From contig JAZSLQ010000089.1 of NCBI GenBank assembly GCA_045535455.1, positions 1 through 59,250 of the forward strand: a DNA stretch of 59,250 nt, read 5' to 3'. The notes below the pieces were generated by a model. The model saw only the letters and a list, made by a program, of their open reading frames with translations, searched no databases and was not told where the DNA came from. The translations under genes were made by a program, and so were the position numbers. The DNA comes from Kiritimatiellia bacterium. GTDB taxonomy: Bacteria > Verrucomicrobiota > Kiritimatiellia > RFP12 > UBA1067. Shown here piece by piece: positions 2,319-45,542 of this stretch (its first letter is position 1; each line of letters opens with the position of its first letter).

Positions 2319-2407
2319 CTTGCGGCTCATTTTCCCTTTAAAATATCCAATCTGCGGCTCACAATGAGCCGCAGATTTGGTATAATAGAATCGTTTTGAG
2401 CCGCAAG
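2319..2407. promoter_or_regulatory. Four-site symmetric operator-like array and extended -10 promoter of Fic gene 1
   Basis: TGAGCCGCA inverted at 2321-2329 and 2353-2361, direct at 2365-2373 and 2397-2405. TGGTATAAT at 2378-2386. Confidence 0.75.
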
Positions 2408-2417
2408 GAGTGTTGAT

Positions 2418-3458
2418 ATGCAGTTGATCGATGAGATTCTTGAGTATCTTCAGTACCATCCGATGTCCAGCCGTCAGGATGTCGAAGGACATCTTTCTAG
2501 CAAAGTCAGTTCGGCAACGGTGAAACGTCAGATTGCCAGAGGCATTGAAGACGGACTCGTCGTCTCGCACGGCAACAATCGATCAACCGTCTATGCCATA
2601 ACACCGAAGGCCCATATCCTTCGGACCGTCAACCTCGACTCCTACTATGCCATAGACATCGACAAAAGAGATGTCCAGACTGGCTACAACTTCGATTTGA
2701 TTCGCACGGAACTGCCGAAGATCGACATCTTCTCCGCTGACGAAAAGGCGCGGTTGGACGAGTGCCAGAAACTCTTCACGTCGCACATGATGGAAATGGT
2801 GCCGGGATCAGTTGCGTACAACCGGGAACTCGAGCGTCTCGGAATCGATCTGAGCTGGAAGTCATCGCAGATAGAAGGAAACACCTATACCTTGATCGAG
2901 ACGGAGACGCTGCTCAAGGACCTCAAGGAAGCGAAGGGGCGTACACACGCGGAAGCCCAGATGCTCCTGAACCACAAATCCGCTCTGAAGGCCATCATTG
3001 CAAATCCCGGTTATTTCGAGAGGCTTTCGCTTGCGCGGATTGAGGACATACATTCCGTCCTGGTCGAAGACATGGGCGTTGAACCGTCGTTGCGCCATCG
3101 TCGCGTAAGGATCACTGGCACGAAGTATCAGCCGCTCGATGTAGAATCGCAGATACGGGAAGCTGTCGATGACATGTGCGCGCTGATCAACGGCAAGGCC
3201 GATCCGTATGAAAAGGCGCTGCTGGCTTTGCTTCTCATTTCCTACATCCAGCCGTTCGAGGATGGCAACAAGCGGACGAGCCGCCTTGTGTCGAATGCCC
3301 TGCTGCTCGCTTACGGACATTGTCCGCTCACGTTCCGCTCGGTTGACGCGAACGACTACCGCGCGGCGCTTCTGCTTTTTTACGAGCAGAACAACCTCTC
3401 GGCGTTCAAACGCATTTTCGTCGAACAGGCGGAATTCGCCGTTCACGAGTATTTCTGA
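2418..3458 (+). CDS. Fic family protein with N-terminal wHTH (paralog 1)
   Basis: Fic motif variant 'IQPFEDGNKRTSR', 'SSQIEGNT' segment, wHTH-like first ~65 aa, AAGGAG RBS. Confidence 0.9.
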   Translation: MQLIDEILEYLQYHPMSSRQDVEGHLSSKVSSATVKRQIARGIEDGLVVSHGNNRSTVYAITPKAHILRTVNLDSYYAIDIDKRDVQTGYNFDLIRTELPKIDIFSADEKARLDECQKLFTSHMMEMVPGSVAYNRELERLGIDLSWKSSQIEGNTYTLIETETLLKDLKEAKGRTHAEAQMLLNHKSALKAIIANPGYFERLSLARIEDIHSVLVEDMGVEPSLRHRRVRITGTKYQPLDVESQIREAVDDMCALINGKADPYEKALLALLLISYIQPFEDGNKRTSRLVSNALLLAYGHCPLTFRSVDANDYRAALLLFYEQNNLSAFKRIFVEQAEFAVHEYF

Positions 3459-4906: not shown

Positions 4907-5542
4907 GTGGATATTTTGCAAAGAGAAAGGCTGTTGAAGTTTGGCGCAATACCGTTCACCACCGATGTGATTGCTGGCGAATTTGGCGACTATTCGGCAG
5001 TTCTTGCGAAAATTGCCGCGCTTGTTGATGAGGGCAGTCTTGTCCGCATCAAGCGCGGACTTTACTGTCTCTCCCCGAAAATCAGCGGACGTGACCTTGA
5101 TTCGCGTGTTGTCGCGAACGCTCTGTATGGCCCGTCGTATGTATCATTTGAAACGGCGCTTTCGATGCATGGCCTCATTCCAGAGCGCGTGACTGCAACG
5201 ATGTCTGCTTGTGTAAAGCGCGCAAAGCGGTTTGCGACGCCTATCGGAGAATTCTTGTATCGCACGGTACCTAGTGACTGGTTCTCGATAGGCGTTCGGA
5301 CGGTGGATAACGGTGAAGGCGGCTTTCTCGTCGCGTCGCCGGAAAAGGCGCTTGGTGATCTGCTCTTGTCGAGATCCAACCTGAGAATCTCGTCGCCCGA
5401 TTCGCTAAGGGCGTTTCTGGAGGACGACATGCGTTTTGATTTCGATGTATTTGGAAGTCCGGACAAGACAATCTTAAGGGAAATGGCGGCGTGTGGACAC
5501 AAGCCGCTTTTGATGAAGGCATTGGAAAGGATGTTCTCATGA
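4907..5542 (+). CDS. Type IV toxin-antitoxin antitoxin, AbiEi-like (second, unrelated pair)
   Basis: 'LVRIKRGLY', 'LYGPSYVSFETALSMHGLIPE' and 'ASPEKALGD' motifs; TAGGAG upstream of the GTG start. Confidence 0.85.
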   Translation: MDILQRERLLKFGAIPFTTDVIAGEFGDYSAVLAKIAALVDEGSLVRIKRGLYCLSPKISGRDLDSRVVANALYGPSYVSFETALSMHGLIPERVTATMSACVKRAKRFATPIGEFLYRTVPSDWFSIGVRTVDNGEGGFLVASPEKALGDLLLSRSNLRISSPDSLRAFLEDDMRFDFDVFGSPDKTILREMAACGHKPLLMKALERMFS

Positions 5543-6366
5543 CGCTCTACGATTCCATGGTTGAAAGCTATGCGCCGAAGTCTGCTGCCGAGCGGCTTGC
5601 CGTTCAGCAGGAGGTTATGCAGCTTATTGCGCTTGCGGGACTTGCGCGAGGCGGATTTTTCGAGAAGGCGGCGTTCTACGGCGGAACGTGCCTGCACCTC
5701 TTCTACGGAATGGAACGGTTTTCCGAGGACATGGACTTTTCCCTTCTTAAGCCAGACACTTCGTTCGATTTCGAATCGTACTTTCCGGCGATAAAGGAGG
5801 AGTTCGCCCTCGCGGGGAAGAAGGTGGAGATCCAGTTGAAGCACAAGGGGCGGCCGTCGTCCGTGGAGAGCGCGTTTCTCAAGGAATCGGCAGAAGTGTT
5901 CAAGATCGGCTTCACGACGCAAAAGCAGATCAAGGTCAAGATCGAGGTAGACATTGATCCGCCGCCGGGCTTTTCGACAGAGCAGAAGTTGCTGGTCAAG
6001 CCGGTGTCACGCTGGATTCGCGTTTATTCGATAGGCGATCTGTTTGCCGGGAAGGTCAGTGCAGCGCTCTTTCGCGCCTGGCGCACGCGTACAAAGGGGC
6101 GAGACTGGTACGATCTCGAGTGGTATGTGAGGAATGGCTATGCGTGCCATTTGGGACACCTTGTGGAGCGGTGCAAGGAGTCCGCTCCCGAAACCGACCT
6201 TTCTTCGCGCGAAGCACTCATCGCCGCGTTTAGGAAGCGCATTGCGACAATCGACTTCAAGGCGGCGAGCGACGATGTCCGTCCGTTCCTAAAGGATACT
6301 TCATGCCTCGACATCTGGAGTCAAGAGTATTTCAATTCGCTTGTCGATATGATCAAGGTGGAGTAG
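5539..6366 (+). CDS. Nucleotidyltransferase toxin, AbiEii/AbiGii family (second pair)
   Basis: 'FYGGTCL', 'RFSEDMDF' and 'KGRDWYDL' motifs. ATG overlaps the antitoxin stop (ATGA). Confidence 0.88.
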   Translation: MTLYDSMVESYAPKSAAERLAVQQEVMQLIALAGLARGGFFEKAAFYGGTCLHLFYGMERFSEDMDFSLLKPDTSFDFESYFPAIKEEFALAGKKVEIQLKHKGRPSSVESAFLKESAEVFKIGFTTQKQIKVKIEVDIDPPPGFSTEQKLLVKPVSRWIRVYSIGDLFAGKVSAALFRAWRTRTKGRDWYDLEWYVRNGYACHLGHLVERCKESAPETDLSSREALIAAFRKRIATIDFKAASDDVRPFLKDTSCLDIWSQEYFNSLVDMIKVE

Positions 6367-6430: not shown

Positions 6431-9400
6431 ATGAACGATTTTGAAGAGTATTTTAAGGCTGGTGAGCCGGGACGGCGCGGTGGCGTAGGCCTCCTACGTT
6501 CGTGCGCATTGCTATCCTTCGCCTGCATTGGTGCAATGTGTCTTGCGCCGCTGCATTCCGTCGCCGCGACTGAAGCGAAGCCGACTGTCGCAGATTCTGA
6601 AGAGGCGGTTCGTGATTACGACTATGTGTTTCGCGGCGGGGCTGCGGAGCAGGGCGATTGGCTTTCGCCGGGCAACTGGGCTGTGCCTAACGGGAACGGC
6701 GGCTACGCTGCCATTGCCGCCGACAAGACTCCGCAATTTGTCGCCTCCGGGCAGAACCCAGACTGGGCACCGATGCTTCTGGACGGCTCCTTGATGACAG
6801 GCGTGGATGCAGATGGCGACGGGCTTAAGCATGTCACTGCGGCGAGTGAGCTTGAGGGGTATATATTCAGGCTCGGGGTCTATAACAACGTGTCGCTTGC
6901 GATTTCAAGTCTTGCAAAGCTTCAGAAGGATGGATGGATATACGTCGATGCCACGTCGAAGCTGACGATTGGCGGCTTTGGCTCGAAATACAAGGGCGAC
7001 ACGACCGTTCTGCATGTGGCGGCGCGTGAAGGTGTGACGTTTGCCTCGACAGTCGCGTTAGGCGACCTGCGGTTTGCATACTGTTTCGAGGGGGAGGGTT
7101 CGGTCGCGTACAAGGGCGCGGTGACAGGCGGTTCGCATACGCTCCGTGAAGTCGCGCTTTCGCTCTCTCCGGACGTCGCGGGCGGAGCAACATGCGTAAA
7201 GTCCAGGACGCTTGTCACCTACCACGAGTCCAGCTCCATTTCGTTCAGCGTCTCGTCTTCTGTCCGCGTGAACATCGCGGACGCGCTTGGCGGCACTGTC
7301 GCGGCGAACGTGAAGTCGAAAGGTTCGTCACTGTCAGCAATAGGCGACGTGTGGTTCTCGCAGGAACGCAATGCGTTCAAGGTGTATTACGTGGATTATG
7401 GCGAGGATGGCGTGGTCGTGCCGGCGACAGACCGCATGACGGCCATCCAGACGGAGAGCTCCTACTATCGCAACAACACGTTCTTCCAGCCGCTGATCGG
7501 TTTGCGCGTCGACTCGACGAAGGGCGGACAGGTGCTCAAGTCCGTCAAGGCGCGTGTAAGCGACGCCACTGCGATAGGAGCCATCACCGACGTCAAGCTC
7601 TATGCCACCAGTGTTCCCTACTTTGCGCCGGGACTCGCAACCGACTACTGGGACGGAATCTCGAAGACTATCCCGTCAGGGGGGTCGCGCACGATTTCGG
7701 TTTCCTTTTCCGCGTCCAAGGGGCCGAGCATAACCAAGAATACATATTTGTGGCTGGCGGTGTTGATCAACCCGAACGCCCCGGTGCGCGGCGAGATAGA
7801 CGCGGAGATAACGGAAGTCGCGCTTGGCGACGCCACTTCAACAACCAAGCCGCAGATATGGGACCCCTCTCCGGCAGGCGTTGGCGAGATATACCCCTAC
7901 GACTGGCACGTGACTCCGTATTGGCGGATGAACGACTGGACGCTCAATGCGTTGACGGCCCGCCACATGGCCTGTTATACCGACATCATCGCGTTCTACT
8001 GCGTAGTCAAAAACGACGGCACCATCGGGCACGGCAGGAACGGCGAGCAGTTCACCGACGAAAAACTTGCCGCGGCCGTGGCCCGCATGAAGGAGTTGCG
8101 CGGGAACCGCGATGTGCGGATTCTCGTCAGCATCGCGTGGTGCAAGGATGCCCTGCATTCGGTGACGGCCGATCCTGTTCTGCGTAGCCGCATGGCCGAG
8201 AACCTCGCGGCGTTCGTGGATCGCTTCGGATTCGACGGGGTCGACTTTGACTGGGAGTATCCTGAGTCCAAGGCCGACTGGGAGAACTGGTGCCTGGCTG
8301 TCGCAGAGCTCAAACCGCGCCTTTTCGCGCTCGGCGGGGGCAAGCAGGTTTCCATATCCGTGACCGGCTACAGGATGAATCAGGCGGCGAATTCGCTTGG
8401 CGCCGGGAATGCGCTCAAGGGGCTGTTCCAGCAGTGCAACTTTGTCTGCACGATGAGCTACGATTCAAACAGCAGCGACGGCCATGCTCCGCAGTGGCTC
8501 ATGCAGAATGACGTGCAGAAGTGCCAGGATTTCGGCGGACTCAAGAACTGCAAGATTGCGGCGGGCCAGGCTTTCTATACGAACTACTATCCTGACGCGC
8601 CGAACACGCAATACGGCTTCAACTGGGTGGTGAACAACTATCCGCAGTACGTGGATTCCACCGACGTGTTCCAGGCGGACGACGGCAGGACGGTTACGTA
8701 CAACTCGCTCAAGACCATACGCAAGAAGGTGGCGTGGTGCCGTGAAAGGGGAGTGGGCGTTATGATATGGGCGAACGAAACGGACGTTGCGATTGCGCAT
8801 CCCAAGTCGGCCACGCGGGCCTTGTCCTCGCAGATCGGACCAATGACGCGGGGGCGAGAAGTCGCCGTCGCCGGACCTGAAGACTGGGTCGAAGCGGCGG
8901 CGACAGACGGCACGATAGAGCTGCTTGCCGACATTTCGCTCGATGCTGAGACGTTGCGCCCCGGCGAGATATGCGGAACGCTCAACGGCAACGGCCATAC
9001 GATAGTGCTTGTTGGCGGCAACGAGCCGTTATGCGGAAGGGTGACCGGCACGATAAGCAACCTTACGGTGGTGGCGGTGGATGGTTTCACCGGCACGGCG
9101 CTTCTGGCGGACGATGCGGAGGGCGCGACACTTGTTGACGTCGTCCAGAGCGACATGCGCGAAACGAGCGCTGTCGCAACGGTGGTGCGGGCTCATCCGC
9201 GACTCACCCGCGGACTCGCGCGCGAATCGCTCATCGGTCTTCGGTTCGACAACAACTGGGGCGGGGCCTACAGTGCGTTCGAGGTTAAGTTCCGGCTGGT
9301 CAACTGCACCAAGGCGGACATTTCCGACATTCGGCTTTGGCGGCAGCCGTTCGATCCCGTGCCGTATGCGTTCTACGAAGCCCAGGCCAAGCAACTTGCG

Positions 9401-11941
9401 CAGGCCGTCGTGGATGCGGACGCCGGGGCTACGGAGTTTACCGCCTCGTTCGCTCCCGGTACAACTCAGATCTATCCCTGTGTCGGTACGCGCCCTGAGA
9501 GCGACTATCTGTGGGTCACTGCGACGATAAACCCTGGCATCTTGCCGGACGCCGAGATATGGGTCTCGATCCCGACGGCTGAGATTACGCTGGGGAATAG
9601 CCGCTACGTGGTTGTCAACGGCGCAGAGACCGCGCCGCATCGGATTCTTCCGTTCGTCTACCAGGTGGGGGCGTACATGCGGCAGAACTTGATGTCGGCT
9701 GTTTCCGCGAGCAAGTTGGAGGATGCGAGCGCCGAACGCATTGCGGGGCTTACCGACATAATCTTGATCGACGACGTGCGCGTAAAGTATGACTCTGGGC
9801 GGGATTTGTTCACGACAACCTGGGATGGTCGCGGGCGCGACAACACGGCGCAGGCGGCGCGCGTTCGGACACTGCGCAACCTATACAATCCCAAGTGCAT
9901 GGTTCGCGCCTGTCTTACCAAGGGCGACAACGTAATCACAGTGGACGGCGTGACGGGCTATCCCATCGCCTGCGCGGCCGCGTCGGCCGCTCGGCGGAAA
10001 CAGCTGGTGGAGTCGATTTTCTCGCTGCTCGAGGAAAATAGCTTGGACGGGCTCGATATCGACTGGGAATATCCCGGCGACCACGTTGACGGGACTGGGC
10101 AAGTGGATCGCGACTGGAACAGCTACGGGCTTTTGCTGCGCGACCTGGCTGCGGCGTTTTTCGACCGTGGGTATGTGCTCTCCTTCTGCTCCAACCTTGG
10201 CTACAGGATGGCTCCCAATGCCAGATGGGGTGCGTTCCATGCGGCTGACTTCATCAATTCGATGGCTTATGGCAGTTCGCCGCTCAACGCATCGCCGCAG
10301 GTGATGAAGACGGGAATCTCCGTATGCACGTCGCGCGGCGTTCCGAAGCGACGCATAGTGGTGGGTCAGGCCATGTACGCCTATGAGAACCAGAATCCGG
10401 GCTGGTCCAGTGTGGCGGGGTGGCTGGAGGCGGCGTATCCTGGCGACGTTTCGCGGCGCTGGGATGCGGATTTGGTGATGCGTAACGGCACCACCAAGGA
10501 GACGTTCGAGGGTCCGTCGAGCTACCACGCCAAGTGCAACTGGTGCCGCGCAAACGACTACGGCGGCGTGATGAGCTGGGGCTACTACACCGACGTGGCG
10601 TGGAACGATCCGGACCTGATGTCACTTGCCCGCCATCAGGCGAACGCCATCTGGCCGGAAACGGCATGGTCGCCGCCCGATCCACCTCAGGACGCGGAGG
10701 GCACGTATCTGCTCGACAGTGAAGACGATTTCCGCTGGTTGCGTACGCACGGCGACGTGTCGGCAAGACTGACGACCGACATCACGCTCGCGCACGACCC
10801 GCTGCCCATTGAGGAGTTTTCCGGCACGCTCGACGGCGACGGTCACGCGCTGATCGTGCCGGCAGACGTGTGGCTGACGTTCGACGATATGCCGGCGCTT
10901 ATCCGCGTTTTGACGGGTACGGTGAAGGATCTCCGCATCGACTTCGCAGGGCGCGCGGTCAACCGGGCGTCGCGCTGGAATGACAGGACGGCCGAGACTT
11001 CGGAGAACACGCTTTCGTCTGACGATCACCACACTGCGGTCTTGGCCGCCATCGTGCGCAATGGGGCGATGGTGGATGGCGTTGAGCTGATTTTGCGCGA
11101 GGGTTCGGAAGTGCAGGGGCCGACCTATGTGGGGGGACTTTTTGGCAGTGTGTTCTGTGCGGCTGGTTATCATGTCGAGGTCCGCAACTGCCGCGTACAG
11201 GTGGGCGGCACCATTCGTGCGCTCGCCCGCAACACGGCCGAGGGCGACATTTATCCAGCCAATGTCACCGTGGGTGGGCTGGCGGGGTGGATAAGCTGTC
11301 CGGGATCGGGCCTGGTCGCGATTTCCAACAACGTAGTGGTGCTCGAGACTACGGGACGCATCGCCACCGAGACCGGCGCCACCACGTCGGCGGGAGGCAT
11401 GGTGGGCCATGTCAACAACGCCAATCCGGTTTTACGGGACAACTTGACTTACGTGGCGGCCGGAGCGACAGTGGCGAACAACCATGTTTCGGCGACGGAC
11501 AGCCTGAAGCGCTCCTACGGGGCGGCTTCGTGGAACAGTCCCTCGGGCGCCAATCTTTCGCCGGGTGCGGTGGTGCTGGCGAAGGGGGCCGCAAAGTTGT
11601 CGGCGGGCGTGGGCGGCATCAGCGAAAAGGGCGTGGCGGCCTATGTCTTGACGGACGAGCCACAGGACGAGGATACGCACTTGCAAATCGCGGCGTTCGA
11701 GCTTGCGGCCGGAGGGACGGTTTCGCTCGTCGTGGAGAATGCAGGCGACGACGACGTAGGAATATCTACGGCTGCGCGTCCGGTCGTGCAGTATCTTTCG
11801 CTGGATGGCGGCGAGGCGTCGGTGTTGGAGACTGTGCGCCCGGATGCCATGTTGCTCGAGAACGGGGCGATGTCGTTCGCCATGCCCGCCCCATCCGTCA
11901 ACCATAATCCTACGTTGTTCAGGGTGTTTCTTACGCCATAA
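6431..11941 (+). CDS. Large multidomain, probably secreted, protein with two GH18 (chitinase/ENGase-like) domains
   Basis: Two intact DxxDxDxE motifs: 'FDGVDFDWEYP' and 'LDGLDIDWEYP'. N-terminal hydrophobic stretch; AAGGA RBS; 1836 aa. Confidence 0.85.
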   Translation: MNDFEEYFKAGEPGRRGGVGLLRSCALLSFACIGAMCLAPLHSVAATEAKPTVADSEEAVRDYDYVFRGGAAEQGDWLSPGNWAVPNGNGGYAAIAADKTPQFVASGQNPDWAPMLLDGSLMTGVDADGDGLKHVTAASELEGYIFRLGVYNNVSLAISSLAKLQKDGWIYVDATSKLTIGGFGSKYKGDTTVLHVAAREGVTFASTVALGDLRFAYCFEGEGSVAYKGAVTGGSHTLREVALSLSPDVAGGATCVKSRTLVTYHESSSISFSVSSSVRVNIADALGGTVAANVKSKGSSLSAIGDVWFSQERNAFKVYYVDYGEDGVVVPATDRMTAIQTESSYYRNNTFFQPLIGLRVDSTKGGQVLKSVKARVSDATAIGAITDVKLYATSVPYFAPGLATDYWDGISKTIPSGGSRTISVSFSASKGPSITKNTYLWLAVLINPNAPVRGEIDAEITEVALGDATSTTKPQIWDPSPAGVGEIYPYDWHVTPYWRMNDWTLNALTARHMACYTDIIAFYCVVKNDGTIGHGRNGEQFTDEKLAAAVARMKELRGNRDVRILVSIAWCKDALHSVTADPVLRSRMAENLAAFVDRFGFDGVDFDWEYPESKADWENWCLAVAELKPRLFALGGGKQVSISVTGYRMNQAANSLGAGNALKGLFQQCNFVCTMSYDSNSSDGHAPQWLMQNDVQKCQDFGGLKNCKIAAGQAFYTNYYPDAPNTQYGFNWVVNNYPQYVDSTDVFQADDGRTVTYNSLKTIRKKVAWCRERGVGVMIWANETDVAIAHPKSATRALSSQIGPMTRGREVAVAGPEDWVEAAATDGTIELLADISLDAETLRPGEICGTLNGNGHTIVLVGGNEPLCGRVTGTISNLTVVAVDGFTGTALLADDAEGATLVDVVQSDMRETSAVATVVRAHPRLTRGLARESLIGLRFDNNWGGAYSAFEVKFRLVNCTKADISDIRLWRQPFDPVPYAFYEAQAKQLAQAVVDADAGATEFTASFAPGTTQIYPCVGTRPESDYLWVTATINPGILPDAEIWVSIPTAEITLGNSRYVVVNGAETAPHRILPFVYQVGAYMRQNLMSAVSASKLEDASAERIAGLTDIILIDDVRVKYDSGRDLFTTTWDGRGRDNTAQAARVRTLRNLYNPKCMVRACLTKGDNVITVDGVTGYPIACAAASAARRKQLVESIFSLLEENSLDGLDIDWEYPGDHVDGTGQVDRDWNSYGLLLRDLAAAFFDRGYVLSFCSNLGYRMAPNARWGAFHAADFINSMAYGSSPLNASPQVMKTGISVCTSRGVPKRRIVVGQAMYAYENQNPGWSSVAGWLEAAYPGDVSRRWDADLVMRNGTTKETFEGPSSYHAKCNWCRANDYGGVMSWGYYTDVAWNDPDLMSLARHQANAIWPETAWSPPDPPQDAEGTYLLDSEDDFRWLRTHGDVSARLTTDITLAHDPLPIEEFSGTLDGDGHALIVPADVWLTFDDMPALIRVLTGTVKDLRIDFAGRAVNRASRWNDRTAETSENTLSSDDHHTAVLAAIVRNGAMVDGVELILREGSEVQGPTYVGGLFGSVFCAAGYHVEVRNCRVQVGGTIRALARNTAEGDIYPANVTVGGLAGWISCPGSGLVAISNNVVVLETTGRIATETGATTSAGGMVGHVNNANPVLRDNLTYVAAGATVANNHVSATDSLKRSYGAASWNSPSGANLSPGAVVLAKGAAKLSAGVGGISEKGVAAYVLTDEPQDEDTHLQIAAFELAAGGTVSLVVENAGDDDVGISTAARPVVQYLSLDGGEASVLETVRPDAMLLENGAMSFAMPAPSVNHNPTLFRVFLTP

Positions 11942-12013: not shown

Positions 12014-12685
12014 ATGAATAGAAAGAAGATTGTTAAGTTTGCGGCTTGGGGAATTGTGGCCGCACTTGTCGCGTGGGGCGTGTCGGCGATTGCCGTCTAT
12101 TGGGTGTCGGCTGGGCGCGTGTTCGACAAGGCATCTGATGTTCCGCACTGCCGCGCCGCCGTTGTGTTGGGTTGTCGCAAGTCCCTGCCGAATGGACTCT
12201 TGAACCTTTATTTCACGCGGCGCATCGCCGCTGCCGCCGATCTTTACAAGGCGGGCAAGGTGGATTGCCTCATTGTCAGCGGCGACAACCATATCAAGGA
12301 GTATGACGAGGCGTCGGACATGAAGGAATCTCTTGCCGAGGCGGGCGTTCCTGCGGATCGCGTCGTCTGCGACTATGCGGGATTTCGCACGCTTGATTCT
12401 GTAGTGCGGGCGAAGAAGGTGTTTGGGCTTGATTCGTTCATTGTCGTTTCGCAGAAGGATCATGTTCGCCGCGCGGTCTTCACGGCGCGTGGCTTCGGCT
12501 GCAACGCATACGGCTATGCCGCGCCAGATGTCAACGGACGCTATTCAATCAAGACTACAATTAGGGAGCAACTTGCCAAGATCGCGGCGGTTCTCGATGT
12601 GATTCTTCGCCGTGGTCCTAAGTTCCTCGGCCCCCGAGAACTTCTGCCGGATGGTTCTCAGGGGAATGTTTTTAGACAGGATTAA
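12014..12685 (+). CDS. sanA: SanA/YdcF family protein (DUF218)
   Basis: N-terminal TM helix; 'LIVSGDN', 'DYAGFRTLDS' and 'IVVSQKDHVRRA' motifs; TAGGAG RBS. The stop codon lies within the repeat arm. Confidence 0.85.
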   Translation: MNRKKIVKFAAWGIVAALVAWGVSAIAVYWVSAGRVFDKASDVPHCRAAVVLGCRKSLPNGLLNLYFTRRIAAAADLYKAGKVDCLIVSGDNHIKEYDEASDMKESLAEAGVPADRVVCDYAGFRTLDSVVRAKKVFGLDSFIVVSQKDHVRRAVFTARGFGCNAYGYAAPDVNGRYSIKTTIREQLAKIAAVLDVILRRGPKFLGPRELLPDGSQGNVFRQD

Positions 12686-12753
12686 CAGGATTGACAGGAT
12701 TGTGGGGATGAATGGATGTCTTAATCTTGTAAATCCTGTAAATCCTGTCTAAA
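12670..12753. repeat. Complete palindromic 9-mer-arm element
   Basis: Left arm ttttagacaggattaacaggattgacaggatt (12670-12701); right arm aatcttgtaaatcctgtaaatcctgtctaaa (12723-12753). Confidence 0.85.
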
Positions 12754-12817: not shown

Positions 12818-12905
12818 AATCGGTCGTAAAGATGGCGGATTTTGGGCAAAATCGGTCGGCATGGCGACCGATTTTGTGGTATAATATGTGACGGACCGAC
12901 CGATT
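12818..12905. promoter_or_regulatory. Four-site symmetric operator-like array and extended -10 promoter of Fic gene 2
   Basis: AATCGGTCG at 12818-12826 and 12850-12858; CGACCGATT at 12865-12873 and 12897-12905; TGGTATAAT at 12877-12885. Confidence 0.75.
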
Positions 12906-12916
12906 AGAGTAAAAGT

Positions 12917-13951
12917 ATGACGAATCTTGATAAGGTGATTGAGTATTTGCACTATCATCCGGGCGCAAGTCGCCGCGAATTGATGGAGGCACTGGTTCTG
13001 GGAATCAAGGACACCCAGATGAAAGTGCTTTTGGGTGATGGTATAGCCAACGGCGACATCCGCGTTGAGGGCAAGGCGCGGGCGACACGCTATTTCATAA
13101 CGCCCAAGGCGCAGCTCTTGAGGACGATTGATCTTGGATCGTATTATGCTGTCGAGACCGACAAGCGTGAGATGCAGACCTCGTATAATTTCGAGTTGAT
13201 CCGTGACGTGTTGCCGAAGGTGGAGATATTCACGAAGGACGAGTGCAAGTTCCTTGTCGACCGGGAGAATGCATTTTTGGCGCGCATGAAGGACTATCCG
13301 AAAGAACTCTATGCGAAGGAGATGGAACGGCTTGGTATCGACCTCAGCTGGAAGTCGTCGGAGATCGAGGGCAACACCTATACGCTGTTGGAAACGGTTA
13401 ATCTCCTGAAGGACAAGATCGAAGCCGAGGGCAAGAAACGCGAAGAGGCGATAATGCTCTTGAACCACAAGGCGGCGCTTAAGGCCATTGTCGAGCATAG
13501 TGCGTATTTCAGAGATCTTTCGCTTGCGCGGATGGAGGACGTGCATTCGGTGCTGATCGAGGAACTTGGCGTCGAACGCAACCTGCGCCACATAAGGGTT
13601 GGCATTTCGGGGACGAGGTATCGTCCGCTTGAAGTTGAGTCTCAGATACGCGAGGCAGTGGAGGACATGTGTGCCCTCGTGAACGGCAAGAGCGACCCTT
13701 ACGAAAAGGCGCTCTTGACGCTGTTGCTTATCGCCTACATTCAGCCGTTCACGGACGGCAACAAGCGTACGAGCCGTCTGATGGCGAATGCGGTGTTGAT
13801 TTCGCGTTCGCTTTGCCCTCTGTCATTCCGCACGGTAGAGGCAAATGACTATCGGGCGGCATTGCTCCTGTTCTACGAGCAGAACAATCTCTCGGCGTTC
13901 AAGAAGATGTTCCTTGAGCAGGTTGAGTTCGCGATGAAGGAATACTTCTGA
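12917..13951 (+). CDS. Fic family protein with N-terminal wHTH (paralog 2)
   Basis: 'IQPFTDGNKRTSR'; collinear and visibly similar to 2418-3458 from about residue 60 onward. Confidence 0.9.
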   Translation: MTNLDKVIEYLHYHPGASRRELMEALVLGIKDTQMKVLLGDGIANGDIRVEGKARATRYFITPKAQLLRTIDLGSYYAVETDKREMQTSYNFELIRDVLPKVEIFTKDECKFLVDRENAFLARMKDYPKELYAKEMERLGIDLSWKSSEIEGNTYTLLETVNLLKDKIEAEGKKREEAIMLLNHKAALKAIVEHSAYFRDLSLARMEDVHSVLIEELGVERNLRHIRVGISGTRYRPLEVESQIREAVEDMCALVNGKSDPYEKALLTLLLIAYIQPFTDGNKRTSRLMANAVLISRSLCPLSFRTVEANDYRAALLLFYEQNNLSAFKKMFLEQVEFAMKEYF

Positions 13952-17015: not shown

Positions 17016-17093
17016 TTGTAACAACTTCTCCATTGCATTGACGCAGAAAAGTTGTTACAATACTGTCGATATGGGCAGAAAAGTTGTTACAAT
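17016..17093. promoter_or_regulatory. Promoter and repeated operator-like sites of Fic gene 3
   Basis: TTGCAT (17033-17038), 17 nt, TACAAT (17056-17061). 19-bp direct repeat gcagaaaagttgttacaat at 17043 and 17075; inverted core ttgtaacaact at 17016-17026. Confidence 0.65.
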
Positions 17094-18054
17094 CGGTGGT
17101 AAGCCGTTTCATTCCAAGCTTGCGCCATACGAAAGCGAAGTGAAAGAGCTTAAGGCTTCCAGTGCAAGCGTTAGGGCGATTGCGGCTGAGATGTTTGCGC
17201 GGCATGGCATCCAAGTGTCGCACAATGCCGTCGCGTCGTTTTTGCGGACGCATGGTACCAAGCGTCGCAACTTTCTTGACGGAATCGGCGAGGCGAGGCG
17301 AACGGAACTGCTAAAGGCGATTAGGGCGCTTTGGACGCACGACTCTACGGCGATCGAGGGCAATACACTCTCGCTCGGCGATACGATGGCGGTGCTGGAG
17401 TATGGCTTGACGGTGAAGGGGAAGCCGCTCAAGGACCATCAGGATATTGTCGCCCACGCGAACGGCGTTGATTTTGTGCGTTCGCTTCTTGACAAGGGGC
17501 GTATTGCCGAAGCGGATGTCTTGGAGTTGCATCGCATCGTCGTGCCGAATGAAACGCGAGACATATACAAGCCCATTGGAGCGTGGAAGCGCGAGGACAA
17601 TGGCACTTATGGCGCCGAGGGTGGCAGAAGCGTCTACATGCCCTACGCCTCTGCCGATGAAACGCCGAAACTGATGCGCGGCTGGATAAAGGCGTTCAAC
17701 TTGTTGTTTGACGGCATCAAGGGCGCAGACGCTGCGCTTGAGGCGTATTTGTTCGCCCATGTCTCGTTTGTGCGAATCCATCCGTTCTTTGACGGCAACG
17801 GCAGGCTTGCGCGGCTTCTTGCAAATCTGCCGGTTCTCTACGCGGGCTTCCCGCCGATTGTAGTTCCGTCCGAGGCGCGGCTTGAGTACATCCGCGAACT
17901 TTGGGATTACCAGCGCGCGGTGGGCGTAATCAGTCTCGCAAGAAAAGAGCTGCTGCCCGAACCGACACGACTCGACAATCTGCGCCGCCTCATTCGCAAT
18001 TGGTGGCAGACAACTCTCGACCTCGTTGCCGAGGCAAAGGGGAGTTCAAAATGA
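17071..18054 (+). CDS. Fic family protein (canonical motif) with a putative N-terminal HTH
   Basis: 'HPFFDGNGRLAR' and 'STAIEGNTL' motifs; helix-turn-helix-like 'SVRAIAAEMFARHGIQVSHNAVASFLR'. ATG 17071 preferred over TTG 17038. Confidence 0.9.
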   Translation: MGRKVVTIGGKPFHSKLAPYESEVKELKASSASVRAIAAEMFARHGIQVSHNAVASFLRTHGTKRRNFLDGIGEARRTELLKAIRALWTHDSTAIEGNTLSLGDTMAVLEYGLTVKGKPLKDHQDIVAHANGVDFVRSLLDKGRIAEADVLELHRIVVPNETRDIYKPIGAWKREDNGTYGAEGGRSVYMPYASADETPKLMRGWIKAFNLLFDGIKGADAALEAYLFAHVSFVRIHPFFDGNGRLARLLANLPVLYAGFPPIVVPSEARLEYIRELWDYQRAVGVISLARKELLPEPTRLDNLRRLIRNWWQTTLDLVAEAKGSSK

Positions 18055-43615: not shown

Positions 43616-45542
43616 GACGTATTCCGTAAAGATGCGCGCGTCGAGCGACGGGCATCATGTTTCCGGCGCGGAGAAGATCGTTTCCGTTGCATCGGTCTCG
43701 AAAGTTGCGTCACGGCTTGTCGAACGCGCATTGTCGCACGAGCGCGGCACGCCTGATTTCATCAACGTCAAGATTGAGTCGCTTCCAGCTGACATTCTTC
43801 GTCTCAAGGCGCTTCCCGTCAAGACGCATGTCGTCGCAACGCCCACTGAGGGCCGCGCTCTTGCCGCGCGGCTCTTGGCCGAAGCGGGAATTGTCAATGC
43901 CGATGAGATCATGGCGCGGTTTTCCGAGACGCATTCGCTTCGTGGCGCGATGCTGCTCGATGCCGACACACTCGAACGGCTTGAGCCAGACCAGTCGCGC
44001 GGCGTACGCGCGACATACATGGACGATGCCGCGTCGCTTGCAAAGGGAACGGCGGGCGTAAAGAACCACTACGCCGAGGCGATCGTCCTTGCGACAAAGG
44101 TTCAGAATGCGCCTAACATAATCGCCGAAATCTGCGTGTCGGACGATCCTGACTATGTGACTGGCTATGTCGCGACGCGTGAACTCGGCTATAGGCGAAT
44201 CACAGTTCTCAAAGAAAAGGGCGATCCAAACGGCGGACGCATCTTCCTCTATCGCGGCCCGCGCGACGGAGTCGCAAAGACGATTGAGTTTCTTGAAAAG
44301 ACCCCTGCCCTCGTCGATGACGTGCCGACGCTTTCGTCCGCGGCAGATGCGCCGCGCCGATTCGATGGTCTTGCGGATGCGCTCGACGCACGTCAGGCGG
44401 CCGGGCTTTCGCGCCGGTGTCGTACATTGGAGGGGCCGACAGGACCGACGGCTGTTGTCGACGGCCGCGAGCTCGTCGTATTTGCGTCGAACGACTATCT
44501 TGATCTCGCGCGCGACCCCCGCGTCATAAAGGCGGCGGCAGATGCCGCAAAGGAGTTTGGCGCAGGGTCGGGCGGTGCTCGTCTTACGACTGGCACGCAG
44601 CCCCCGCATGTGCGACTTGAAAACGCGCTTGCCAAGTTCAAGGGAACAGAGGCCGCGCTCCTTTACGGAACCGGCTACATGGCGAACGTGGGTGCGATCT
44701 CCGCGCTCGTCGGGGAGGGCGACGCAGTCCTCTCCGACGAATTGAACCACGCTTCTATCATAGACGGATGCCGACTTTCTGGTGCAGATGTGCTCGTCTA
44801 TCGTCACGGCGACATGGAGGACTTGGACCGAAAGCTTGGCGCCTGCCGCGAACATCGTCGTCGGCTCGCCGTCTCGGACGGCGTATTCTCGATGGACGGC
44901 GACGTTCTCGATTTGCCGCGCTTTTTGGAGGTGACGCGTCGCCACGATGCGTTCTCCATGGTGGACGAGGCGCATGCGACTGGCGTTGTTGGTCGCACGG
45001 GGCGCGGGCTTGCGGAGCATTTTGGCTGCGACCTTCCTGATGTCCTTATGGGAACGCTCTCCAAGGCACTTGGGTCGGAGGGCGGTTTCGTCTGCGGCTC
45101 ACGGCTTCTTGTGGAGTATCTTCGCAACATGTCGCGGCCCTTCATCTTCTCGACTGCGCCGGGTGCGCCCGCGATGGCGGCTGCGCTTGCCGCGCTCGAG
45201 GTTCTTGTGTCCGAGCCAGAGCGCGTGGCGAGGCTGCGTGAGAATGTCGCTTTCTTTGTCTCGGAACTCGTGCGCCACGGCATCTCCGTCCGTGGCGAGA
45301 CGGCCATCGTTCCTATTGTAGTAGGCGACGAGGAAAGGGCGCTTGCGGCGAGCGCGGCGCTTGAGGAACACGGCTTTCTCGTGCCTGCGATACGCTATCC
45401 TACGGTCGCCCGCGGCATGGCGCGTCTTCGCGTCGCCCTCATGAGCGTCCACACGCCCGAACAGCTCCGCGCCGCCGCCGCTTCTTTTGCCGATTGCCCG
45501 TCCTGCTTCGTGCGCGACAATATCGGCAAGCATTTCAATTGA
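43608..45542 (+). CDS. bioWF: Fused pimeloyl-CoA synthetase (BioW) / 8-amino-7-oxononanoate synthase (BioF)
   Basis: BioW N-half: 'YSVKMRAS', 'HVSGAE', 'ALSHERGTPDFI', 'SDDPDYVTGYVA' and 'GGRI'. BioF C-half: 'FASNDYL', 'DELNHASIIDG', 'DEAHATG' and 'GTLSKALG'. Single frame with no internal stop. Confidence 0.9.
   Translation: MSETYSVKMRASSDGHHVSGAEKIVSVASVSKVASRLVERALSHERGTPDFINVKIESLPADILRLKALPVKTHVVATPTEGRALAARLLAEAGIVNADEIMARFSETHSLRGAMLLDADTLERLEPDQSRGVRATYMDDAASLAKGTAGVKNHYAEAIVLATKVQNAPNIIAEICVSDDPDYVTGYVATRELGYRRITVLKEKGDPNGGRIFLYRGPRDGVAKTIEFLEKTPALVDDVPTLSSAADAPRRFDGLADALDARQAAGLSRRCRTLEGPTGPTAVVDGRELVVFASNDYLDLARDPRVIKAAADAAKEFGAGSGGARLTTGTQPPHVRLENALAKFKGTEAALLYGTGYMANVGAISALVGEGDAVLSDELNHASIIDGCRLSGADVLVYRHGDMEDLDRKLGACREHRRRLAVSDGVFSMDGDVLDLPRFLEVTRRHDAFSMVDEAHATGVVGRTGRGLAEHFGCDLPDVLMGTLSKALGSEGGFVCGSRLLVEYLRNMSRPFIFSTAPGAPAMAAALAALEVLVSEPERVARLRENVAFFVSELVRHGISVRGETAIVPIVVGDEERALAASAALEEHGFLVPAIRYPTVARGMARLRVALMSVHTPEQLRAAAASFADCPSCFVRDNIGKHFN

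Follow-up and report, generated by a model that had tools for sequence, protein, structure and literature searches.

A predicted four-site autoregulatory operator at the gene of a winged helix-turn-helix Fic protein without the catalytic histidine

We found that a 59,250-nt stretch of DNA from a Kiritimatiellia bacterium (hereafter the window) carries, at positions 2319-2407, four copies of one half-site placed symmetrically around the promoter of the gene that encodes a Fic protein, P0001, whose N-terminus is predicted to form a winged helix-turn-helix (wHTH) domain. This array is most probably an autoregulatory operator, to which P0001 would bind through its wHTH to repress its own promoter. 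The positions of the sites, the conservation of the array in homolog promoters, and the covariation of the half-site word with the predicted recognition helix all point in this direction.

The four-site array and the promoter it encloses

The word TGAGCCGCA occurs four times without mismatch, on the minus strand at 2321-2329 and 2353-2361 and on the plus strand at 2365-2373 and 2397-2405. The left two half-sites are direct copies and the right two are inverted copies, the symmetry centre of the four is 2363, and the outer spacing is 32 bp, start to start, on either side. The inner-left arm AATCTGCGGCTCA (2349-2361) and the inner-right arm TGAGCCGCAGATT (2365-2377) form an inverted repeat with 13-nt arms and a 3-nt centre, which extends imperfectly to 19 nt. 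The outer-left half-site CTTGCGGCTCA (2319-2329), which holds the minus-strand TGAGCCGCA at 2321-2329, and the outer-right half-site TGAGCCGCAAG (2397-2407) form a perfect inverted repeat of 11 nt. The last TGAGCCGCA copy abuts the Shine-Dalgarno sequence AAGGAG (2405-2410) and shares 1-3 nt with it. These coordinates agree with the initial annotation, which had described four copies mirror-symmetric about 2363, an inner palindrome with 13-bp arms lying flush against the next element (TGGTATAAT, starting at 2378), outer copies exactly 32 bp further out as an 11-bp perfect inverted repeat, and a last copy overlapping the Shine-Dalgarno sequence.

A promoter scan identified CTCACA-17-TATAAT with an upstream TG at 2358-2386, of which the extended -10 element TGGTATAAT occupies 2378-2386 on the plus strand. 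The -35-like hexamer CTCACA (2358-2363) is weak (4/6) and is overlapped by the inner-left arm, and the inner-right arm ends flush with the extended -10. The array surrounds the extended -10 and ends 12 nt before the ATG (2418) of the 346-aa gene. Both the -35 hexamer and the spacer lie under the inner pair. Counted from the inferred transcription start, site 4 extends over about +4 to +12, and the whole outer-right half-site, which abuts AAGGAG, spans about +4 to +14. With sites over the -35 hexamer, on either side of the -10 and up to the transcript start, the array appears to have a repressor layout, as judged from the positions only.

Positive control by the same protein, with a genuine wHTH-Fic operator serving activation or a bistable switch rather than simple negative feedback, would make use of the weak -35 hexamer, of an outer-left site near -68 and a pair near -36/-24 that could serve class I/II activation, and of a -10 whose position within the array varies between lineages. 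However, we consider it quite unlikely, since a half-site over about +4 to +12 and an inner pair over the -35 and spacer, next to a near-perfect TGGTATAAT, are what repression typically looks like, activation is not needed at an extended -10 promoter, and CccR, the sole characterised Fic-HTH protein, is an autorepressor.

In the window, one further exact TGAGCCGCA was found, at 45093, and the word counts 58 on both strands of the 3.43-Mb draft genome. No other TGAGCCGCA copies spaced by 32 bp were found across this draft genome, the only comparable case being the second paralog with its own word. We also searched for a wider regulon by scanning the own genome (a 277-contig draft) for half-sites paired in inverted orientation 0-60 nt apart. 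No targets beyond chance were found in it (3 against ~6 expected, and 4 against ~2.5 expected), and a look-alike pair with a 3-nt gap at C135:7116 lay inside a long coding frame.

The wHTH-Fic protein and the systems it resembles

The gene following the array (2418-3458, plus strand) encodes P0001 (346 aa), which belongs to the Fic/Fido superfamily according to Pfam (Fic, PF02661, residues 203-296, 2.3e-14, above the gathering score), a profile match to FICD (8e-18), and Foldseek. The AlphaFold2 (AF2) model, built on a 71-sequence alignment, had a pLDDT of 87.9 and a pTM of 0.88. Its N-terminus has the layout of a canonical wHTH (helices at 3-13, 19-25 and 32-44, strands at 48-51 and 58-61) and is followed by an all-helical Fic body. 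Pfam, NCBIfam and PADLOC gave no match to this N-terminal domain, so the wHTH assignment (residues 1-62; 2418-2603, plus strand) rests on the AF2 model. The predicted recognition helix comprises residues 32-44 (2511-2549), where the model and the half-site covariation described below point to Ala33 as the specificity residue.

The closest solved relative of P0001 was FICD/HYPE (Foldseek 5e-9, TM 0.54, 250 aligned columns, besides the profile match above). P0001 resembles the class-II Fic proteins (FICD/HYPE, 4U04 and 6I7G; BT_2513, 3CUC), which were its best matches, in the Fic fold and in the inhibitory motif (S/T)xxxE(G/N). This motif lies N-terminal to the Fic core on the same chain, at S149-S-Q-I-E153-G154 (2862-2879, plus strand); WKSSQIEGNT was found in 68 of 82 members, and WKSS(Q/E)IEGNT is nearly invariant. 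P0001 differs from FICD in that about 250 of its 346 residues align, FICD is without a wHTH, and the FICD motif is HPFIDGNGRTSR, compared to QPFxDGNKRTSR in the family. No solved structure with the full P0001 architecture was found, the PDB matches from both profile and Foldseek searches spanning the Fic part only.

The degenerate Fic motif of P0001, Q278-P-F-E-D-G-N-K-R-T-S-R, lies at 3249-3284 on the plus strand, and its Gln278, in place of the catalytic His, aligns with FICD His363. Gln occupied this position in all 79 of the 79 family members examined, with the rest of the motif (FxDGNKRxxR) kept. The motif of competent AMPylases, HxFx(D/E)GN(G/K)R with an invariant catalytic His, is absent from P0001, and because of this missing His a "Fic toxin" cannot be assumed. 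The Fic(Gln) domain may act either as a nucleotide or ligand sensor or as a non-canonical effector whose level has to stay low, which negative feedback would ensure.

The nearly invariant inhibitory-helix segment WKSSQIEGNTYT, at residues 147-158 and 169-173 (2856-2891 and 2922-2936), was the sole part of the AF2 model with pLDDT <50, though it is extremely conserved. It may form a mobile or ligand-dependent element.

Regulation of fic expression by HTH-Fic fusions was proposed in 2009 (PMC2686095), and among such fusions only CccR, with a different architecture, has been tested for self-regulation. CccR of Yersinia pseudotuberculosis (PDB 7XUX) is a Fic-HTH protein that represses itself via widely spaced inverted repeats, with 10-bp arms and a 26-bp spacer near the -35 and -10, and a dimer is required for binding; its HTH is C-terminal and its catalytic His intact, and it AMPylates FtsZ and is secreted by the T6SS (PMC9755527). 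Like CccR, P0001 combines Fic with an HTH, here a predicted wHTH, on one polypeptide, and inverted repeats cover its own -35 and -10. CccR has two half-sites, a C-terminal HTH and a His, whereas P0001 has four half-sites, an N-terminal wHTH and a Gln. The profile match between 7xux and P0001 (E 0.0027) covered the Fic part only, and CccR ranked 42nd in Foldseek. P0001 could not be assigned to CccR by homology, by an active His or by T6SS association, no secretion genes being conserved near the 80 homolog loci described below.

P0001 was likewise not assigned to SoFic, which is a Fic domain plus a C-terminal wHTH and hence of another architecture. The PADLOC SoFic model matched it at 1.2e-19 over model positions 63-216 of 361 only, and the NCBIfam SoFic model gave 17 bits against a 550-bit cutoff. 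A His-to-Gln motif, Qx[F/Y]x[D/E][G/V]NKR, was described in silico in 2015 for Doc clade D2, comprising 45 mostly single-domain proteins that were reported without a DNA-binding domain, operator or function (PMC4454073; Khater & Mohanty 2015). Compared by motif alone, both the family's YIQ[PA]FxDGNKR and the plasmid forms QAFADVNKR and QPFEDVNKR fit this pattern. The clade D2 proteins are mostly single-domain, whereas the P0001 family is fused to a wHTH.

Conservation of the array and its context

The wHTH-Fic family is large, with at least 8000 significant candidates (8000 of the 8000 scored). We sampled 80 loci with 47-99% identity and read 130-170 nt upstream of each start. These loci came from Kiritimatiellota, Lentisphaerota, Verrucomicrobiota (Akkermansia and others), many Bacteroidota, and one Spirochaetota MAG, and most of the genomes compared were MAGs. 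One homolog (L024) is carried by Prevotella jejuni DSM 26989. The loci held 69 distinct N-terminal sequences and near-duplicates were common (e.g. ~10 Akkermansia loci), so the counts given here overstate the number of independent lineages.

A blind search for a 7-mer present as two direct and then two inverted copies detected a symmetric four-half-site array in 67 of 82 promoters, 62 at ≤2 mismatches. At ≤2 mismatches, this generic detector was positive in 4 of 246 shuffles (1.6%) and in 6 of 240 other windows taken from these loci (2.5%), which excludes chance for the array at 2319-2407. The 15 of 82 promoters that were negative with the strict detector showed, by eye, mostly degenerate sites, and some of their genes were truncated.

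The left and right spacings were quantised in the homologs, with (22,22) in 27 promoters and (32,32) in 25, in addition to ±1 variants and four mixed cases, whereas the spacings of control matches were scattered over 15-45. At the 47 loci with exact 5-mer cores (GCTCA, GGACA or GGTCR), the arrays were either (32, gap 3-4, 32) or (22, gap 13-15, 22), and the combinations (22,3,22) and (32,14,32) were never seen among such arrays. The initial annotation had expected four-site symmetry and a 32-bp period in homolog promoters. The symmetry stood, but the period was rejected as a universal feature, with about half of the family at 22 bp and the values being 32 or 22 (±1). The two spacings are one helical turn apart, which fits its further proposal that the sites lie on one face of the DNA.

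The better geometric invariant is not 32 bp but the ~40-41 bp between alternating inverted half-sites. Sites 1 and 3 were 39-43 bp apart, mostly 40-41, as were sites 2 and 4, in both main array types, because a loss of 10 bp in the outer spacing is offset by a gain of 10 bp in the inner gap. About five mixed arrays combined a flank spacing of 32-33 with one of 22 (e.g. 32,14,22 and 22,14,32), and in these the site 1-3 or 2-4 distance was 51-52 on one side only. Sites three helical turns apart are also found in NrdR boxes, where an oligomer of a protein with fused nucleotide-sensing and DNA-binding domains binds promoter sites ~31-32 bp apart. NrdR consists of a Zn-ribbon plus an ATP-cone, folds unrelated to P0001, and regulates ribonucleotide reductase genes, not itself.

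The core promoter was always enclosed by the array, and the position of the -10 within it differed between lineages. At Kiritimatiellia-type loci (n = 20; W1, W2 and L001-L018), the -10 lay 37-39 nt before the ATG, between sites 3 and 4. TGnTATAAT was fully matched at 17 of these 20 loci, whichever half-site word they carried, and the remaining three kept a TATAAT/TATACT-type hexamer there, with the TG or the hexamer differing. As judged by eye, Akkermansia loci have a TGnTAAAAT or TATAAT -10 between the two inner sites, and Bacteroidota loci have a TAnnTTTG-type box, which we take to be the -10 motif of that group, at or adjoining the right-hand sites.

The inner palindrome might instead be a hairpin terminator or cruciform closing a lipocalin-fragment or minus-strand transcript, with the outer copies incidental, and a terminator scan did flag a 13-bp stem with a 3-nt loop and a T-rich tail on the minus strand. 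We rejected this explanation, which is extremely improbable: the inner half-sites are 13-15 nt apart in the 22-bp arrays, where the tight palindrome is not conserved, and the outer copies recur at fixed spacings at dozens of loci with unrelated flanks. Moreover, no minus-strand gene reads in, and the palindrome lies 5' of the -10, so it is probably untranscribed from this promoter. The lipocalin (Blc-like) fragment, of 68 aa, is found at 2090-2296, just 5' of the array.

Nucleotide similarity between the window and three homolog loci (L002, L003 and L005) starts at 2317-2321, that is, at the outer-left site, which forms the left edge of the conserved cassette, and ends just past the stop codon. 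Operator and gene thus appear to travel together as one cassette. No conserved neighbour gene or operon partner was found over the 80 loci, with the largest cluster seen at 5 of 80, these five being closely related, and with every second downstream neighbour on the opposite strand; nor was there the conserved adjacent partner gene of a toxin-antitoxin (TA) system. As the neighbouring genes are not conserved, the cassette is a single-gene module, as the initial annotation had proposed. Full-length phage matches, which would indicate phage carriage, were not found.

This mobility raises the question of whether the repeats, rather than being regulatory, mark the ends of a small mobile cassette or serve it as recombination sites. 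Such a role would suit the exact start of inter-locus homology at the outer-left site, the presence of the gene in many unrelated contexts, and the apparent exchange of HTH-plus-operator modules between Fic bodies. Yet the four sites are all on one side of the gene, with no matching repeat after the stop codon, no conserved integrase or transposase is nearby, and the sites are positioned by the -10 and the ATG, not by the flanks. We therefore regard this explanation as very improbable indeed, and a role in mobility would in any case be compatible with operator function.

Two different AbiEi/AbiEii (type IV TA/Abi) pairs flank the P0001 gene (paralog 1), at 645-2074 and 4907-6366. AbiEi operators resemble the present array in that a wHTH protein uses several inverted repeats within its promoter for negative autoregulation; AbiE differs in having two genes with a separate nucleotidyltransferase effector, no Fic homology and another site geometry. 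The sites could accordingly be bound by another regulator, either host-encoded or a neighbour such as the adjacent AbiEi wHTH antitoxins, which are known to act as autorepressors on inverted repeats (PMC7319586). This is very unlikely given that the array is conserved over 80 loci but the neighbours are not, that array and gene transfer as a unit, that in this genome each paralog's array is found at its own promoter only, and that the core follows residue 33 of the Fic protein even inside one Fic-body clade. Autoregulation by P0001 remains the preferred reading.

The region around paralog 1 has the look of a toxin/defence island, without a mobility gene. A third Fic gene in the window (17071-18054) is unrelated, with a canonical HPFFDGNGR motif, a STAIEG inhibitory motif and an HTH-like N-terminus. 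Two copies of the 19-mer GCAGAAAAGTTGTTACAAT are spaced by 32 bp at this gene, one at 17043, with a TACAAT -10-like hexamer in it, and one at 17075, within the first codons, and an inverted core TTGTAACAACTT is found nearby at 17016-17027. The stretch 17016-17093 may be another self-operator with three-turn spacing. Between the Fic paralogs lies a GH18-like ORF of 1836 aa (6431-11941) with weak matches to ChiD chitinase and endo-beta-N-acetylglucosaminidase H and a GC content of ~62%, above that of its flanks. The AbiEi/AbiEii pairs, the canonical third Fic gene and the partial PADLOC SoFic and PDC-S04 matches hint at stress or defence, and we speculate that the wHTH-Fic(Gln) family is a single-gene stress or defence module.

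More distant relatives are found on plasmids of Sulfitobacter, Undibacterium and Roseibium (L081-L083; 428-466 aa, 28-32% identity). They have an N-terminal wHTH and the His-to-Gln motifs QAFADVNKR, QPFEDVNKR and QPFDDVNKR. In each promoter a word particular to the lineage is repeated 5-6 times, such as AATCGTTTCA at -144, -95, -78 (inverted), -30 and -9, or TTGCGCCTA-like words every 19-20 bp, and the symmetric four-site geometry is absent from these three promoters. A gene on a Bacteroides finegoldii plasmid (L084; NZ_OY725910.1, 3362-4273), whose 303-aa product is 54% identical, starts at the wing and is without the wHTH. No half-sites were found in its AT-rich upstream region, which makes it a natural copy without HTH or operator.

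Half-site specificity and a proposed mechanism

The window contains a second paralog of 344 aa (12917-13951, plus strand), 60% identical to P0001, which shares the Gln motif but has Thr33 in its predicted recognition helix. Its predicted four-site operator (12818-12905) has AATCGGTCG at 12818 and 12850 and CGACCGATT at 12865 and 12897, spacings of 32/32 and a centre at 12861.5, followed by TGGTATAAT (12877-12885) at the same distance from the ATG as in P0001. The half-site word is a 9-mer completely different from TGAGCCGCA, in the same geometry. Upstream of this array, at 12671-12753, three 9-bp units (GACAGGATT, AACAGGATT, GACAGGATT) face three inverted units (AATCTTGTA, AATCCTGTA, AATCCTGTC), together forming an inverted repeat with 31-nt arms and 90% complementarity, whose left arm supplies the stop codon of a SanA-like gene (12014-12685).

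We found that the core of the half-site varies with residue 33, at the beginning of the predicted recognition helix. GCTCA accompanied Ala or Ser at this position in all 58 clear cases, GGTCR (GGTC(G/A)) accompanied Thr in six of six, and GGACA accompanied Lys or Arg in five of six. Residue 32 seems to tune the flanking bases, AGCTCA being found with Tyr, and CGGCTCA with Ser, Asp or Pro. Since the half-site co-varies with the gene's own predicted recognition helix, the Fic protein itself is the probable binder, which lends support from sequence to the autoregulation by the wHTH-Fic protein suggested in the initial annotation.

On a maximum-likelihood tree of the Fic body alone (residues 65-346), the residue-33/core labels were interspersed, and well-supported branches force at least six changes. 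For example, L010 (Ala, GCTCA) was sister to L012 (Thr, GGTCR) with support of 100/93, and L013 (Thr) was sister to the clade with the window's own gene. This interspersion indicates that helix and operator switch together, independent of the rest of the protein, and the likely route is exchange of a promoter-plus-wHTH module between Fic bodies. Two genomes have two paralogs each, namely that of the window and the MAG JAZRWB01 (L009 and L013), and in both the specificities of the paralogs differ, which would fit insulation between co-resident copies.

In the mechanism that we propose, the wHTH-Fic protein would bind the four half-sites through its wHTH as an oligomer. One dimer would contact sites 1 and 3 and another sites 2 and 4, the two members of each inverted pair lying ~40-41 bp from each other, and the DNA would be bent; each dimer would span about four helical turns, with a shift of two or three turns between the dimers along one DNA face. 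RNA polymerase would thereby be occluded and the protein's own level kept low. Joint change of recognition helix and half-site word would leave co-resident paralogs without cross-regulation. Within autorepression we favour this interleaved pairing (1+3, 2+4), at roughly an even chance, because the 40-41 bp is conserved across both array types and a rigid dimer could not read an inner gap of both 3 nt and 13-14 nt. CccR, whose 10-bp repeats are separated by a 26-bp spacer, reaches similarly far. Mixed arrays break the interleaved-dimer distance on one side, suggesting some flexibility.

A broader reading, which is possible but which we hold only tentatively, is that these proteins form a large unrecognised class of one-component regulators or effectors, in which a repurposed Fic domain would sense a nucleotide or ligand or carry out a His-independent reaction. 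Self-only control, the interleaved-dimer operator, module exchange and the position-33 code would be its hallmarks, and its extent would be thousands of members across PVC phyla, Bacteroidota and proteobacterial plasmids. If so, the class would provide naturally orthogonal repressor/operator pairs, and several paralogs could coexist in one cell.

In the literature searched, we found no account of the N-terminal-wHTH/Gln-motif family as a self-regulated cassette, of a four-site phased operator with a 32/22 compensation rule, of a residue-33 specificity code, or of helix-operator co-exchange. The whole family now gains a predicted operator, a whole-turn spacing rule, a helix-to-DNA code, and evidence that operator and helix move jointly. 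The function of a widespread, uncharacterised Fic variant without the catalytic His becomes directly testable, and natural sets of mutually insulated repressor/operator pairs would be on offer.
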